IMG/VR virus record: IMGVR_UViG_3300020450_000029
Coordinates: 1-55,989 of that record
Source of the DNA: a virus
Lineage: Duplodnaviria; Caudoviricetes
Length of the DNA stretch: 55,989 nucleotides
Direction: 5' to 3' (one strand)
Shown: positions 3,275 to 45,933 of the stretch, in pieces
Position numbering within the stretch: the first letter of the stretch is position 1
Layout of the letters: the number at the start of each line of letters is the position of its first letter
Position numbers and translations under genes: made by a program
The notes under the pieces: generated by a model
Database searches by the model: none
What the model was told of the DNA's origin: nothing
What the model saw: the letters and a program-made list of their open reading frames with translations, nothing else

Positions 3275-3417
3275 CAATAAAAGAAGCTGAAGAGGATTTG
3301 ATGCATCATTTCCTCTACAGCCAACCCACCCCAAAACAAAATCCTATCTTACGTTTTATAAACAGAGCAGGCTGGGCTTTTGTAATTTTTGTAATTATTC
3401 TTGCATTATTAGGTTGA
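3253..3417 (+). CDS. Small membrane protein (54 aa, not in ORF track)
   Basis: MRQTDELT...WAFVIFVIILALLG*; C-terminal TM. Confidence 0.55.
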   Translation: MRQTDELTIKEAEEDLMHHFLYSQPTPKQNPILRFINRAGWAFVIFVIILALLG

Positions 3418-33607: not shown

Positions 33608-35467
33608 TTGTTTTTAGGACTATTAGTTTTTATAACAGCCCTTTGTATTAGTGCAGTAGCAATATATTATAGTATAGCAGGATTGGTAGCTATTTTTGCC
33701 GCCGCGGCTATACCTATAATGATTATGGGCGGAGCATTAGAAGTTGGTAAACTTGTAACCGCAGTATGGTTACACAAACACTGGCGTCGAGCTAAATGGT
33801 GGCTTAGGTACTATCTAGCACTCGCAGTAGTTGTGCTAATGTTTATTACCAGTATGGGTATATTTGGTTTTCTTAGTAAAGCACACATAGAGCAGACCAG
33901 TGCTAGTATTGAAAGTGTAGAACAAGTAGCACGTATAGAAACTGAGCTAGCAAGACAACAAGCAATAATAGATCGAGCTGAAATAAAAATACGTGAAGCT
34001 GAAAACAGTACTGGTAATCGTAATGATGATATCAATGCACAAATAGAAAAAGAACAACAACGTATTGATAGTGCATACGAACGTATCAAACCTGCAATAG
34101 AAGAACAACAAAAAATTATATCAGATGCTAGAGATAGTGATGCAGATAGAACCAAACCATATGAAGACCAATTAACCAAAATTACAGATGAACTAGTACG
34201 GTTAGATAACAATGCTAAAGAATACGAAGCAACTATTGCAGATTTAGATGTTGATAACAGTGCTATAGATCCAATACAAGCACAAATTGCAACTATAAAA
34301 AATACTATAGCAAAAGTTGAAGGACAAATTGCTAGTGGTGAAAGCGAACAAATTAAACAAGCACAACTTACTATTGGTTCAAATGCAGACGGACAAGCAG
34401 GACCAAACACAAGGCGTAGTGCAAATACATGGATTGGATTACAAAAAGAACGTATTAGTGAATTGCAAGAACAAATCTCACAATTAAGAATAGAAGCAAA
34501 AACTACAGTAGACAATGAACGTACACGACTTAGTACTATAGTAAGTGATATACGTAATGTACAAATACCTGCATTGAAAGACAGAGAAGTGCAGATGCTT
34601 GCTAAAATAGATGAAGTTCGTGCAACTGAATCTCCAATAGTAACTACTGCTAGAGACGAAATTGCTAGGATAAGAGCAAGTGCAGATGAACAAGTTAATG
34701 CAAGTCAAACATTAATTCAACAGTTAAGGGAAAAAATTACAGTAGATAGTGGTGCAGATATTGATGCAATTATAGATGCACAAAGTCTACGTATTACAGA
34801 TGCTAACAAATTAATAGATGAACTAACAGAAGAAAAATATACAATTGAAGCAGAGTATAGAAAATTAGAAGCTGAAGTAGGTCCGATTAAATACATTGCT
34901 GAATTTATATATGAAGAAGCAGATAGAGATATACTAGAACAAGCAGTAAGGTGGGTTATCATTACAATCATATTTGTATTCGATCCACTAGCAGTTTTAC
35001 TGTTAATAGCAAGTCAATATACTTTTGAATGGAGAAGCCAAAATGACAACCAAATACGCAGAACAATTGTACAAAATGAACCCGATCCAGAGCCCCAGTC
35101 AACCACTGAGCCAGAAGAGCCAGTCTACGAAGATGTGGACCAAGAAATCATCGATAATGAATTTGCTGAAGAAAAAGTAGAAGATGAAGATGAACTAAAG
35201 TTCATGTTAGAAAAAGCTGACCCAGAAGTTTTGGAAGAAGTAGCAAAAGAACTTGAAATAGAAAAACCGGTTGACAAAGAACCATATGACCCTTATACTG
35301 ATAACAGAGCTGATGAAGAACTTACTAACGATGAATTGGCTCAGAGACAAAACAGAAAACTATATTCACCGGATGGTAGATTAGCGGCTATGCCAAAGAG
35401 AATAAAAAGCATTAAAATAAAAAGTATAGCTGAAAAAGCAGAGGATAATAAAAAAGAGGATGATTAG
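33608..35467 (+). CDS. Membrane-anchored long coiled-coil protein
   Basis: N-terminal TMs, heptads, GPIKYIAE, FVFDPLAV TM, acidic tail. Confidence 0.85.
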   Translation: MFLGLLVFITALCISAVAIYYSIAGLVAIFAAAAIPIMIMGGALEVGKLVTAVWLHKHWRRAKWWLRYYLALAVVVLMFITSMGIFGFLSKAHIEQTSASIESVEQVARIETELARQQAIIDRAEIKIREAENSTGNRNDDINAQIEKEQQRIDSAYERIKPAIEEQQKIISDARDSDADRTKPYEDQLTKITDELVRLDNNAKEYEATIADLDVDNSAIDPIQAQIATIKNTIAKVEGQIASGESEQIKQAQLTIGSNADGQAGPNTRRSANTWIGLQKERISELQEQISQLRIEAKTTVDNERTRLSTIVSDIRNVQIPALKDREVQMLAKIDEVRATESPIVTTARDEIARIRASADEQVNASQTLIQQLREKITVDSGADIDAIIDAQSLRITDANKLIDELTEEKYTIEAEYRKLEAEVGPIKYIAEFIYEEADRDILEQAVRWVIITIIFVFDPLAVLLLIASQYTFEWRSQNDNQIRRTIVQNEPDPEPQSTTEPEEPVYEDVDQEIIDNEFAEEKVEDEDELKFMLEKADPEVLEEVAKELEIEKPVDKEPYDPYTDNRADEELTNDELAQRQNRKLYSPDGRLAAMPKRIKSIKIKSIAEKAEDNKKEDD

Positions 35468-35473
35468 AATTAT

Positions 35474-35899
35474 ATGAGGGAGAATCCCATTTATACTATT
35501 ACTCCTCCTGACATGCATTTACCCGAAGCAGGACCAGTAATCACGGTGTTAAGCAGTGATCCAAATTTTGTAAAAGATATTGAACTGTTGTATAATGATT
35601 TTTTTAAAACAGTACCTATATCATTGTATCATACAAACGGACCAATAGAAGATAATAATTCTGTTTGGATAATTAGTATGATGAGATTTAGCGATACAAT
35701 ATTTGTTGATTTAGACAATATTACAGAACTTGGACTTTTCTGTGCATTACAAGCAAAGAAAAAATCTACAATATATTTTAATCGAAAAAACAAAAGGAAA
35801 AGCATAGTGAAAATTTTAAATACAGTTAATACTTGTGCAGTCTATGATAGTGTTGACGATTATGCAGAAGCGATGTTGCATGGCGTTGAAACACTTTAA
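35474..35899 (+). CDS. Hypothetical protein
   Basis: 141 aa; ITPPD motif. Confidence 0.75.
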   Translation: MRENPIYTITPPDMHLPEAGPVITVLSSDPNFVKDIELLYNDFFKTVPISLYHTNGPIEDNNSVWIISMMRFSDTIFVDLDNITELGLFCALQAKKKSTIYFNRKNKRKSIVKILNTVNTCAVYDSVDDYAEAMLHGVETL

Positions 35900-36416
35900 G
35901 AAACACAGAGTACCTGTAAAGCAGGTCAACGAGTTTATTACACATAATACTTTACGTGTGATTGACGACAACGGGCAGATAGGAATATTATCAAAGAATG
36001 ATGCATTAAATTTATCAGTAAAACGTAACATAGATTTAGTTGTAATAAATGAAAAGAGTGAACCTCCGGTTGCAAAATTATTGAATGCAGGAAAATATTT
36101 CTATGAACAAAAACGCAGAGAAAAAGAAGCGGCAAAAAAACAAAGAGAAAATCAAATTGTTGTTAAAGAAATGCAATTCAGACTAGGTATTGACCAACAT
36201 GATTTTGATACAAAGTGTAAAAGTATAATTAAATTTTTAGAGAAAAATAATAAAGTAAAATGTGTGATACGATATAAAGGCAGAGAAAACAGTAACAAAC
36301 AGGTAGGTTTTGGTATCATGGATCGTATCATGGAATTAGTACAAACTGCAACATGGGACACAAAACCAGCCATTAACGGAAACCGAATGATTGGTATCCT
36401 AATGAGGAAAGAATGA
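35880..36416 (+). CDS. infC: Translation initiation factor IF-3
   Basis: NEFI..LRVID..G.IGI, DLV.I...PPVAK, KEMQFR..IDQHD...FL...KVK..IRYKGRE; start approximate. Confidence 0.9.
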   Translation: MALKHFKKHRVPVKQVNEFITHNTLRVIDDNGQIGILSKNDALNLSVKRNIDLVVINEKSEPPVAKLLNAGKYFYEQKRREKEAAKKQRENQIVVKEMQFRLGIDQHDFDTKCKSIIKFLEKNNKVKCVIRYKGRENSNKQVGFGIMDRIMELVQTATWDTKPAINGNRMIGILMRKE

Positions 36417-36664
36417 ATAAAAGATTTAAACCAATGAGTTCAGATATTAACGACAGATCAGGCTTGTATGTTGAGGTAAGAAACAACGACGTAAACAGAG
36501 CATTGAGACGTTTAAAAAAATTAATGAATCAAGAAGGCATGGTTAAAGACATGCGTAAAAAAGAATTCTATGAAAAACCAAGTGTTATTAAAAAACGTGA
36601 AAAAGCACAAGCACGTAAACGTTGGTTAAAAACACAAGAAAAAAATAAAGAAAATTGGCAATAA
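36413..36664 (+). CDS. rpsU: Ribosomal protein bS21
   Basis: VEVRNNDVNRALRRLKK...EFYEKPS..KR. Confidence 0.92.
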   Translation: MNKRFKPMSSDINDRSGLYVEVRNNDVNRALRRLKKLMNQEGMVKDMRKKEFYEKPSVIKKREKAQARKRWLKTQEKNKENWQ

Positions 36665-36668
36665 AAGG

Positions 36669-36697
36669 TTGACAAATGGGTCAACAAGTATTATATT
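36669..36697 (+). promoter_or_regulatory. Sigma70 promoter for ncRNA, with dyad over the -35
   Basis: TTGACA-17-TATATT; GTTGAC-N6-GTCAAC at 36668-36685. Confidence 0.7.
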
Positions 36698-36704
36698 AAG
36701 TATT

Positions 36705-36910
36705 AATAAGGCGACGGTCTTGTTAGAGTAGTGCAAGGAAACGCACATTTACCAGAGTGTGTAACTTGGCTAGTTAGGGGTGGTACCCAGGCATGGTTGC
36801 AGAAATGCGTTGTGCCACATCGCTCTCCCGAGCGGAACTAGGCTACCTGGCTTTGAGAATGGTATCTCGGTCGACGGTTTGGAGGTATACCCGAATCCTC
36901 CCTACTCACA
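36705..36910 (+). ncRNA. About 200-nt structured RNA with tRNA-like 3' end (possibly manA-motif-like)
   Basis: Closing stem GAGTAG/CTACTC, GGAGG/CCTCC arm, CTAGTT/AACTAG, CGCTC/GAGCG and other stems; own promoter. Confidence 0.65.
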
Positions 36911-37071
36911 TATATCCTTAGTTGGAACTTGACAGTAATTGGATTACAGTCAGACAGATGCGATAAGAAATGGAATGCGTCTAGAGATATGAAAAACACA
37001 AACAAGAAAGGTTGGCACCGTAATATGCCCGCGAGAAGCCAAGGTTAGCTTCTCACATGATAAATAAAAGT

Positions 37072-37129
37072 GTAGATGCCAAGTATGGGTCTACTTAACA
37101 TTAATCTTGCTTAATAAAGGAGATAGCAA
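37072..37129 (+). promoter_or_regulatory. ROSE-like RNA thermometer in hsp20 leader
   Basis: ATCTTGCTT (37104-37112) pairs with SD AAGGAGAT with a bulged G; upstream hairpin 37072-37094. Confidence 0.65.
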
Positions 37130-37561
37130 ATGAATAGATTAACAACCCTCGACATTAATAAATTAACCCCCTATGCAGTAGGATTCGATAGAGTATTTGA
37201 CGACATGTTTAGATATATCGAACACAATACTAATAGCACAGGTTACCCTCCCTACAACATTATCAGAGATGGTGAAAAGTTTCAAATCGAAATTGCACTA
37301 GCAGGTGTAGACAAAAAAGATTTGGAAATCACAGTTGCTGATGGTGTGCTTACCATTGCACACAATCCAGAAGGTGAAGTAGAAACCGGTAAATGGGATT
37401 GGATTCACAAAGGTATTGCACAGAGAAGCTTCAAACGAAACTTCACATTAAGTGATGATATTGTTGTACAAGGTTCGAGAATGGAAAATGGTATGCTTTA
37501 TATCGAACTAGAGCGAATCATTCCAGAGGAAAAGAAACCAAAAACAATCGCTATCAAATAA
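37130..37561 (+). CDS. Small heat-shock protein Hsp20 (IbpA-like)
   Basis: GFDRVF, YPPYNI, IEIALAG, HKGIAQRSFKRNF, ENGML, IPEEKKP..I.I. Confidence 0.95.
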   Translation: MNRLTTLDINKLTPYAVGFDRVFDDMFRYIEHNTNSTGYPPYNIIRDGEKFQIEIALAGVDKKDLEITVADGVLTIAHNPEGEVETGKWDWIHKGIAQRSFKRNFTLSDDIVVQGSRMENGMLYIELERIIPEEKKPKTIAIK

Positions 37562-37568
37562 AATAAAG

Positions 37569-37588
37569 TGGGGGTAGAAATACCCCCA
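37569..37588 (+). terminator. Hairpin after hsp20
   Basis: TGGGGGTA/TACCCCCA; no clear U tract. Confidence 0.5.
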
Positions 37589-37609
37589 TGAACCACGGTA
37601 AATAGTGTT

Positions 37610-37909
37610 ATGGACACAGAAGTAAAAGACAAAACAACTAGTGAAATAGACTTTAAAAAGCCCAACCGTTATCAGGTGATACTGTATAATGATGATAAAA
37701 CACCTATGGAATTTGTGATTGAATTGTTAAAAAATGTTTTCACAAAAACTGATGAACAGGCAGAAAATATTACACTGTCAGTACACAATGATGGCAAAGG
37801 TGTAGCTGGCGTATATTACTATGAAGTAGCTGAGCAAAAAGTCCACGAAAGTATTTTAGTTAGTCGCAGTGCAGGTTTTCCGTTGACACTGGACATAGAA
37901 GAACTCTAA
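37610..37909 (+). CDS. clpS: ClpS adaptor
   Basis: [33 protein letters not shown]. Confidence 0.93.
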
Positions 37910-37922
37910 GAGAGAGGTTCCA

Positions 37923-39068
37923 ATGCGAATAGAAGATGACATCAAGTTAGACTATTCTGACGTGCTGATAAGACCAAAAAGAAGCACATTAGGTAGTCGA
38001 AAAGAAGTGCGAATGAAACGTAAGTTTACATTTCGCAATTATCATTCAGACATACCAGATACAATTAATTATGATTACGAAGGCATACCAATTATGGCAA
38101 GTAATATGGATGGCGTAGGCACATTCGAAATGGCTGATAGATTAGGTGAACTTAACACTTTTACATGTTTGGTGAAAACCTATAGTGTTGGTGAATTAGT
38201 AGGTTTTTTTGACGAGCAAGATGCACCTGCATGGAGACGTGATCATGTAGCAATGAGTATAGGTATTAAAGACGAAGATCAACAAAAATTTGCCAGTGTA
38301 TATGAACAAGTAGGAGATAATCTAAAATATGTATGTATTGATGTTGCAAACGGATACAGTCAAAGATTTATAGAATATGTTGCAGAATTTAGATTACGTT
38401 TTCCTAGAATAGTTATTATTGCAGGTAATGTTGTTACCGCAGATCAAACACAGGAGTTAATACTAAATGGAGCAGACATCGTCAAAGTCGGAATCGGACC
38501 AGGGTCGGTTTGTACGACTCGCATACAGACTGGGGTGGGCTATCCCCAACTTAGTGCGGTTATTGAGTGCGCCGATGCGGCGCATGGATTGGGTGGACAT
38601 ATCATTGCTGATGGTGGCTGTACTTGCCCTGGTGATGTGGCAAAGGCTTTTGCAGGTGGTGCCGACTATGTAATGTTAGGTGGAATGTTATCTGGACATG
38701 ATGAAGGTGGTGGTGAAATTGTTACCAAACATATTGCCACAGGTGGAGCATACAAAACACCCGAAGGAACATTTATTCCTTATTTTGAAGAACAACAATT
38801 TATACAGTTTTATGGTATGAGCAGTAGAACAGCAAATGATAAACATTTTGAAGGTCTAAAAGATTACCGTAGCAGTGAAGGACGTACAGTACTGGTACCA
38901 TACAGAGGACCAGTAATTACAACATTACAAGACGTATTAGGTGGAGTTAGAAGCACACTGACTTACGTTGGTGCTAACAAACTTAAACAACTTAGTAAAT
39001 GCACTACATTCATACGAGTCAACAATCAATTCAATCGAACATATGAAACTACAACTATTGGTAACTGA
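37923..39068 (+). CDS. guaC: GMP reductase
   Basis: [54 protein letters not shown]. Confidence 0.95.
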
Positions 39069-45102: not shown

Positions 45103-45176
45103 ATGGGTGTAGTGTAATGGTAACACGTCAGTCTCCAAAACTGAAGACGGGGGTTCGATTCCTCCCACCTGTGCCA
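45103..45176 (+). tRNA. tRNA-Trp(CCA)
   Basis: Cloverleaf, loop CTCCAAA, GTTCGATTC, encoded CCA. Confidence 0.93.
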
Positions 45177-45381: not shown

Positions 45382-45536
45382 TAGTTGAATGTGCAAAATG
45401 TGAAACATCATATGATAATCAAACATATTATTCATGTCCAAAATGTCAGCAAGAATTTGATTTTGAATTTGGATTGCAAAATGCAAAAGAACAAAAACAA
45501 TACAGAGAACAAATAAAAGTTGACATTATCAAATAA
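45378..45536 (+). CDS. Small zinc-ribbon protein (52 aa, not in ORF track)
   Basis: GTGA overlap; CAKC...CPKC. Confidence 0.55.
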   Translation: MIVECAKCETSYDNQTYYSCPKCQQEFDFEFGLQNAKEQKQYREQIKVDIIK

Positions 45537-45549
45537 TACTGTTATAAAT

Positions 45550-45820
45550 ATTTCGTAAACGTTGAAGCAACGTGAACACATACTGGACCCGGGGGCGGTA
45601 CCCGGCGCCTCCACCAAAACACTTTTAGACGAGAGTCTTTTTATGGGGGCGAAATAGGATCGACAGGTGTACTAGTGAAGTGGAGTTTACCGGATGACTG
45701 CGTAATAGGTCATTTAAACTAAATGCAAACGATAACTTTGCACCTTCAGATTACGCCTTAGCGGCATAATGCTGTCGGGTTGGCAACTGACCTAGGAACA
45801 GAATAGTTGCACAAAAACCA
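45550..45820 (+). ncRNA. ssrA: Two-piece (circularly permuted) tmRNA, alphaproteobacterial type
   Basis: Acceptor piece ending CCTCCACCA at 45616 precedes GGGGGCGAAATAGGATCGAC at 45645; tag 45725-45769 ANDNFAPSDYALAA*; ends approximate. Confidence 0.93.
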
Positions 45821-45933
45821 CAAATTAGTATAATCTATATAATATGTGGTCGATAATAAGGAAAATAAAGTAAATACAGCAGACAACCTCGTAGATAGCG
45901 TTTGGTTGTTTTTTTATATACAAGGAAATTATT

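Follow-up and report, generated by a model that had tools for sequence, protein, structure and literature searches.

Overlapping genes for initiation factor IF3 and ribosomal protein bS21 belong to a conserved phage operon

The stretch of DNA analysed here (hereafter the window) comprises all 55,989 bases of the IMG/VR virus record IMGVR_UViG_3300020450_000029 (CheckV completeness 15%) and has nearly all its open reading frames (ORFs) on the + strand. It carries a homologue of infC, the gene for translation initiation factor IF3, whose end overlaps the beginning of a homologue of rpsU, the gene for ribosomal protein bS21 (S21). The two genes form a conserved operon of known phage translation genes, in an arrangement that appears to be undescribed: a literature search on phage infC with rpsU and on bS21 with IF3 returned no paper describing an IF3-bS21 operon, supplementary tables and figures lying outside that search, so that the pairing may stand there unremarked. 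The locus is organised as follows, with lengths in nucleotides (nt) or amino acids (aa) and SD standing for Shine-Dalgarno:

35271..35299, + strand: P1, a sigma-70-like promoter (TTGACA-17-TATACT) within the 3' end of an upstream 619-aa gene
35474..35899, + strand: up141, a 141-aa phage-only protein, with its stop TAA at 35897-35899, 11 nt after TTG 35886
35880..36416, + strand: infC homologue (IF3), whose product has 178 aa if started at ATG 35880 and 176 aa if started at TTG 35886, with Pfam domains IF3_N and IF3_C
36404..36408, + strand: SD motif GAGGA of rpsU, within the last infC codons and 5 nt before the rpsU ATG
36413..36664, + strand: rpsU homologue (bS21) of 83 aa, in which the Pfam domain Ribosomal_S21 follows a basic extension of about 17 residues at the N-terminus
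36669..36697, + strand: P2, a sigma-70-like promoter (TTGACA-17-TATATT), 4 nt past the rpsU stop

The ORF at 35835..36416 (+) matched Pfam IF3_N with 76.3 bits (cut-off 26.9; profile positions 1-70 of 70) and IF3_C with 83.8 bits (cut-off 34.8; positions 1-85 of 86), the latter match being also recovered by a six-frame search. Residues 14-174 of the query aligned with residues 6-166 of the solved chain 5me0_Y (E 1.9e-36), a full-length collinearity that includes the basic linker, and two other solved IF3 chains (8jsg_A and 5lmn_X) aligned as well. By these alignments, the gene product is a complete two-domain IF3. The ORF at 36413..36664 (+) matched Pfam Ribosomal_S21 with 68 bits (cut-off 27) over residues 20-70, and 33 distinct bS21 or bS21m sequences of solved chains matched it too (for example 8rd8_NV, E 1.3e-10). 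Since the alignment to these chains begins at query residue 20, the phage protein has an N-terminal extension of about 17 residues, and an alignment of all the bS21s of the clade showed that each carries a basic extension of 10-17 residues, whether or not an IF3 gene is present.

The junction between the two genes reads GAGGAAAGAATGA: the rpsU ATG (36413-36415) and the infC stop TGA (36414-36416) share a 4-nt ATGA overlap. This overlap was found in 20 of the 24 distinct junctions, the other four having an 8-nt overlap of the form ATG-N2-TAG, and the wider GAGGAAAGA-ATGA junction was likewise kept in 20 of 24 distinct sequences. The GAGGA motif stands in 23 of the 24 IF3-S21 junctions, with GAGGC in the exception (L049), and a similar SD also precedes rpsU in relatives that lack IF3. 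Domain matches and sequence thus both agree with the first-pass annotation, made from the window alone, that infC and rpsU homologues overlap by ATGA.

Scans of IMG/VR turned up a related IF3 at 19 loci (59-72% identity) and a related bS21 at 44 loci, and synteny was assessed by tblastn of eight window proteins against all of these loci. S21 follows IF3 in 19/19 IF3 loci and IF3 precedes S21 in 30/44 S21 loci, the pair being present on 32 distinct IMG/VR contigs. The conserved gene order is nuclease-like, 619-aa membrane protein, up141, IF3, bS21, hsp20, clpS and GMP-reductase-like. In the 14 S21 loci that have no IF3, up141 is missing as well; the 619-aa gene is retained upstream in ten of these, and hsp20 and clpS in eight of the ten. 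Consequently, bS21-hsp20-clpS represents a wider arrangement, within which up141 and infC come and go together. A search for IF3_C on five of the IF3-less contigs (38-93 kb), which are fragments of genomes, found none on them. Purifying selection acts on all three genes of the unit, with median ratios of nonsynonymous to synonymous substitution rates (dN/dS, unsaturated pairs) of 0.16 for IF3, 0.155 for bS21 and 0.22 for up141; the IF3 values of pairs that include L041 are artefacts, as the tblastn match of that locus crosses a stop.

Exact matches to TTGACA-N17-TATANT occur nine times in the window, all on the + strand, when 0.06 would be expected (first hexamers starting at 3414, 5810, 12776, 22727, 30787, 31539, 35271, 36669 and 50008), and these nine sites are likely a set of host-type promoters for this phage region. 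P1 lies about 170 nt before up141 and the same pattern is found 83-224 nt upstream of up141 in 22/22 distinct IF3-bearing sequences, which points to P1 as the start of an up141-infC-rpsU transcript. P2 stands directly behind the S21 stop in 18/22 distinct IF3-bearing sequences and in 0/9 IF3-less ones. Because P1 and P2 are separate, two units can be distinguished, up141-infC-rpsU and manA RNA-hsp20-clpS, and the first of these is not leaderless, since its promoter sits about 170 nt upstream of its first gene.

The other four IF3-bearing loci have an extra small ORF directly behind the rpsU stop, ahead of the RNA/hsp20 unit, which begins M-N-W-K-F-W or M-S-W-K-F-W in L013, L015 and L017 and has an unrelated start in L048. 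Just behind rpsU, a partly conserved inverted repeat, GTTGAC-N6-GTCAAC (36668-36685), extends over the -35 box of P2; it may serve to terminate the transcript that arrives from upstream or to stabilise it. We also looked at contigs of four RNA libraries (X15-X18) over positions 34500-38500, bearing in mind that contigs can neither show absence nor rank expression: with that limit, none lay over up141, infC or the bulk of rpsU, and it was mainly the manA RNA and hsp20 that were covered. One low-depth X18 contig starts at 36588, in the last 77 nt of rpsU, and extends into the spacer.

Four in-frame codons of the window could open infC: ATT 35859, ATG 35862, ATG 35880 and TTG 35886. We compared 25 distinct 5' regions of infC, the window's own included: at the position of TTG 35886, 13 of them have TTG and 12 have ATG, and the residues that follow this codon match across relatives (L-K-H-F, L-R-Q-F, M-R-K-F). 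Two codons before the aligned TTG, the 13 TTG-type sequences have ATG (the window), ATA (nine sequences) or ACA (three). Of the nine closest database IF3 proteins, eight start with M-A-L, and the ninth has Leu at the corresponding position. From these alignments, the start of the family is at the position of TTG 35886, and ATG 35880 is a trait of the window's subclade, where it is probably the codon used. The first-pass annotation, which had named these two codons rather than AUU as the plausible starts, was therefore right on this point, and the ATT at 35859, which it had set apart for checking, can be discarded as a start of the family because the frame is closed just upstream in nine of the 12 other TTG-type sequences: an in-frame stop lies at most 12 nt before their TTG and the frame opens only 6-12 nt upstream of it. 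ATT 35859 and ATG 35862 have an open frame only in the window's own subclade and are not conserved. We also considered an ATA start of the Flavobacterium johnsoniae kind, two codons 5' of TTG; it is available in 9/13 TTG-type sequences, three others having ACA instead, a substitution that is silent in the overlapping up141 frame, and we judged it unlikely. The near-cognate start (AUU/AUA/AUC) of many bacterial infC genes was thus not found in this family.

No SD-like motif precedes infC, either ahead of ATG 35880 or ahead of TTG 35886. An upstream ORF, which is usually up141, stops 4-17 nt past the infC start in all 25 sequences, and this geometry suggests that infC is translated by termination and re-initiation from that ORF. 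The remotest IF3-bearing relatives (L046-L049) show a variant: up141 ends earlier there and a separate ORF of 12-14 codons, placed about 30-45 nt upstream of infC and preceded by a strong AAGGAG SD, overlaps infC, stopping 5-11 nt past its ATG. This small ORF, which in L047 encodes M-I-S-N-I-P-S-A-G-K-N-A-Q-V, is a possible leader peptide for coupling.

The AUU start of Escherichia coli infC makes that gene self-limiting, and an ATA start was shown experimentally for F. johnsoniae infC (PMC7797042). A phage infC opened by UUG or AUG would avoid the discrimination of IF3 against near-cognate codons; its start being canonical and not AUU or AUA, it would not be throttled by IF3 start-codon proofreading. 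The idea of the first-pass annotation that the phage gene has escaped autoregulation is supported as far as the UUG/AUG start goes, but without a donor gene the difference cannot be called an escape.

A word-indexed metagenomic search retrieved 197 IF3 homologues at E <= 1e-3 among 221 candidates, those among the 120 matches listed being 56-93% identical. An exhaustive search of 1.84 billion representative proteins gave 9,482 IF3-like proteins, of which only 15 reached E <= 1e-30, and no close cellular donor was present in that library: outside the clade's own representatives and fragments, full-length matches were at most 46% identical. The source names of the ten best representatives outside the clade read 'IF-3' only, apart from one Hydrogenibacillus entry. 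A scan of genome contigs for a host or donor returned one bacterial IF3 that is 40% identical, besides the contig L067/L069 described below, and identified no donor. This lack of a close cellular donor argues for a long-resident phage gene rather than a recent capture.

The first cistron, up141, matched no Pfam or PHROG family. It was found in 48/49 IF3-bearing loci, the 49th being cut off, and in 0/14 IF3-less loci, and its homologues in the Atlas come from viruses only. An AlphaFold2 (AF2) model (mean predicted local distance difference test, pLDDT, 85.8) has a five-strand alpha/beta fold; of the PDB structures, a putative nucleoside deoxyribosyltransferase comes nearest, with a weak template-modelling (TM) score of 0.62, receiver domains being also near. 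A role of up141 as a translation factor finds no support in this fold, which is nucleoside 2-deoxyribosyltransferase-like or receiver-like on weak matches (TM ~0.6).

A related contig, 172,409 bases long, has an estimated completeness of 48%, so the genome of this phage group is probably near 360 kb. The helicases most similar to the replicative helicase of the window are those of three jumbo phages, PA5oct, Phosso and Atu_ph07 (47.9-53.2% identity). Marine plankton is the habitat given by the labels of the sequencing runs. The window belongs to an uncultured marine jumbo phage, the genome size of about 360 kb being an estimate. A nucleotide search of the region against a phage collection, which possibly holds no records close to the window, gave no match. 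A contig of 37.7 kb from a metagenome-assembled genome (L067/L069, filed as 'Gammaproteobacteria') encodes an IF3 that is 71% identical to that of the window; no second IF3_C was found in the 1.2-Mb bin that holds it, and the contig is probably phage DNA inside the bin. That bin may itself contain, or consist of, jumbo-phage DNA.

Downstream of infC-rpsU, the first-pass annotation had noted a non-coding RNA, hsp20 and clpS, and matches to the manA RNA, HSP20 and ClpS families confirm these members of the second unit:

36704..36911, + strand: manA RNA motif (Rfam RF01745), 75.6 bits for a gathering score of 55.2, model positions 1-192 of 192
37070..37135, + strand: ROSE_3-like element (RF02523) covering the hsp20 SD and ATG, a possible RNA thermometer
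37130..37561, + strand: hsp20 (small heat-shock protein), Pfam HSP20, 62.3 bits
37610..37909, + strand: clpS (Clp protease adaptor), Pfam ClpS, 97.1 bits, syntenic in relatives

The manA match starts at 36704, where a transcript from P2 would begin, and this RNA is a neighbour of the infC-rpsU unit, not a part of it. Among relatives, L041 and L044 exceed the gathering score, while L019, L009, L029 and L002 fall short of it. In one sample, two RNA libraries gave exact-match contigs over 36722-36913 (depth 52) and 36725-37004 (depth 14), deeper than any others in the 4-kb stretch examined; the manA RNA (36704-36911, to about 37004) may be an abundant stable leader or a small RNA. Ahead of hsp20, a block of about 135 nt has been conserved in relatives as far as the most distant ones. 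At most, the hairpin at hsp20 would be a ROSE-like thermometer: its ROSE_3 score stays below threshold in the window (29.9 bits, E 0.0014 on searching 2.5 kb, for a gathering score of 43) as it does in L021 (4680-4744) and L011 (5202-5266), with 35.3 bits in each, and its minimum-energy fold leaves the SD in a loop, with an energy no better than that of shuffled sequences (z -0.52). The hsp20 gene lies downstream of S21 in relatives and also in the phage HTVC008M. Its protein is 100% identical to that of L021 (dS 0.14), as opposed to 71% for IF3 and 86% for bS21 at the same locus, and this gap suggests recombination or mosaicism between lineages.

Elsewhere, the window carries further translation-related RNAs:

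1889-2053, 45103-45176 and 45516-45860: tRNA-Arg(tct), tRNA-Leu(taa), tRNA-Trp(cca) and a two-piece transfer-messenger RNA (tmRNA)

The tmRNA, whose tag is ANDNFAPSDYALAA, is of the two-piece alphaproteobacterial type, and a tmRNA of the alpha type was present in 5/5 IF3-bearing and 3/5 IF3-less contigs. A two-piece tmRNA together with tRNA-Arg, tRNA-Leu and tRNA-Trp is described for Melnitz and pelagimyophages (PMC9004378); here, the tRNA set and the two-piece tmRNA hint at an alphaproteobacterial host or gene source.

The first-pass annotation had gone further and proposed that IF3 and bS21 retune SD-led versus leaderless translation and that, together with leaderless genes, an anti-SD hairpin and the tmRNA, they may form one takeover system. 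SD-like motifs precede 44/89 window ORFs when the longest start is taken and 59/89 when any early start is allowed, over a background of about 7-8%. Across loci, the rate is 104/203 in those with IF3 and 53/94 in those without, in small samples of largely homologous genes. SD use is therefore ordinary and equal with and without IF3, the operon itself is not leaderless, and nothing links IF3 to leaderless or SD-less translation. Nor is the single system supported: two promoters divide the genes, the tmRNA also occurs in 3/5 IF3-less contigs, and SD use does not differ. As for the hairpin, manA-hsp20-clpS lies behind its own promoter and the ROSE_3 match is below threshold.

On balance we favour, with modest confidence, a three-gene operon that supplies IF3 and bS21 to sustain initiation on phage mRNAs that are mostly SD-led. 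P1, as a conserved host-type (sigma-70-like) promoter, would drive up141-infC-rpsU. Since infC has no SD and starts within the final codons of the upstream ORF, its translation would probably be weak and carried out by ribosomes that re-initiate there after termination, whereas rpsU, which has both the AUGA overlap and its own GAGGA SD inside infC, could be translated by coupling or independently. The bS21 protein would then exchange into host 30S subunits, on which the phage IF3 would act as a free factor, and the two together would maintain or raise the supply of initiation-competent 30S subunits, with infC itself freed from proofreading by its canonical start.

Several points weigh against this proposal. 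The promoter class (early, host RNA polymerase) is assigned solely from the consensus, the coupling is read from overlap geometry only, and the timing of expression, the binding to ribosomes and the effect on translation are likewise deduced from sequence. Moreover, the bS21 of HTVC008M, a Pelagibacter phage, enters E. coli ribosomes, but the ribosomes that carried it had only about 5% activity when assayed in vitro in an E. coli system (PMC6375957), a value more in keeping with a selective or host-specific action than with a simple top-up. The bS21 extension and an IF3 that is at most 46% identical to cellular IF3 also leave room for an altered specificity. These same facts speak for a selective reprogramming, in which an extended bS21 and a co-adapted IF3 would make phage-specialised 30S initiation complexes that favour phage mRNAs or alter the rules of start-site choice: every bS21 of the clade has the basic extension of 10-17 residues, such extensions are also reported for the S21 of huge phages (PMC7162821), the HTVC008M protein left E. 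coli ribosomes nearly inactive (PMC6375957), and infC and rpsU are linked tightly and exclusively. We nonetheless hold reprogramming, which is a weaker form of the idea in the first-pass annotation, to be unlikely, if credible, for no distinctive feature of phage mRNAs was found, with ordinary SD-like rates (104/203 with IF3 and 53/94 without), and the same extended bS21 is retained by IF3-less relatives, so this protein does not need the phage IF3. We are more doubtful still about its narrower form, in which IF3 and the extended bS21 would be a co-adapted pair, adjacent on the platform of the host 30S subunit, that forms phage-specialised initiation complexes; if true, this would be the first viral operon joining an initiation factor to a ribosomal protein to alter mRNA or start-site choice.

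IF3 also keeps subunits apart and recycles them. The phage protein could thus act mainly in anti-association and recycling, releasing 30S subunits from 70S ribosomes that stand idle in hosts with slow growth and few nutrients, while bS21 would complete the 30S subunits that lack it. The marine plankton habitat and the proteostasis genes that adjoin the operon (hsp20 and clpS), along with the tmRNA and tRNAs of this phage, would suit such a maintenance of the subunit pool, yet hsp20 and clpS belong to a separate transcription unit and no sequence feature separates this explanation from the one that we favour; we rate it as improbable. That infC and rpsU might be recent host-derived passengers without a role in infection is very hard to sustain, even though phages do acquire host translation genes and multiple bS21 transfers are reported (PMC6375957): the genes are conserved on 32 contigs with dN/dS near 0.16 and have no close cellular homologue. 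Nor is the gene context bacterial, as infC is followed here by rpsU rather than by rpmI-rplT, which come after infC in the bacterial operon. Finally, we considered a fusion of up141 to IF3 by a +1 frameshift, as the up141 frame ends ...CTT TAA G in the window and in the L002 group, a site that we take to resemble the prfB frameshift site, and the infC frame is +1 to it. This fusion was rejected and has next to no credence, because the site is not conserved among relatives (GTT TAG or GTT TAA in other TTG-type sequences and GCG TAA in L017) and because up141 of L046-L049 ends earlier, with the separate 12-14-codon ORF overlapping infC instead.

If the pair shifts the choice of start sites or mRNAs, this would directly evidence specialised ribosomes of viral making in bacteria that abound in the ocean; a pair that only tops up initiation capacity would be one more auxiliary gene set. 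Sister phages that naturally have bS21 but lack IF3 offer a clean comparative and experimental handle, and the phage infC provides a concrete case of a canonical start coupled to an upstream ORF instead of a self-limiting near-cognate start.

Both proteins have precedents in phages. Genes for bS21 are described in HTVC008M and many aquatic phages (Mizuno et al. 2019, PMC6375957). The HTVC008M protein belongs to the same Pfam family as that of the window (45.6% identity over 69% of the query by tblastn), it comes from a similar marine lytic myophage setting, and hsp20 lies two genes downstream of its gene, as hsp20 also lies downstream here; unlike the window bS21, it has no N-terminal extension and no adjacent IF3 gene. 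IF3, S21, S21 N-terminal extensions and tmRNA are described in huge phages (Al-Shayeb et al. 2020, PMC7162821), and IF3 in a few jumbo phages (Iyer et al. 2021, PMC7824862). The IF3 of jumbo and huge phages (Atu_ph07, Phosso, GAP32-like) is likewise full-length and phage-encoded, but the window IF3 is only 35-36% identical to those of Phosso and Atu_ph07. Phosso is the only named phage isolate with both genes among the matches listed (40 of 86 IF3 records), and there the genes are about 7 kb apart. With bacterial infC, the phage gene shares the two-domain protein, the normal length and the Lys-rich linker, while differing by its UUG or AUG start from the AUU of E. coli and the ATA of F. johnsoniae (PMC7797042). 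In Flavobacteriales, where bS21 autoregulation is described (PMC9976891, PMC13000453), a strong SD directly precedes rpsU, as it does here, yet SDs are otherwise absent, whereas about half of the window ORFs have SD-like motifs, so that the SD of the phage rpsU is not exceptional. In pelagimyophages, S21 is reported to belong to no gene cluster (PMC7029224); here, by contrast, it is the last cistron of a conserved infC operon. Phage IF3 and phage bS21 were thus each known before as separate genes, and it is their conserved pairing that appears to be new.

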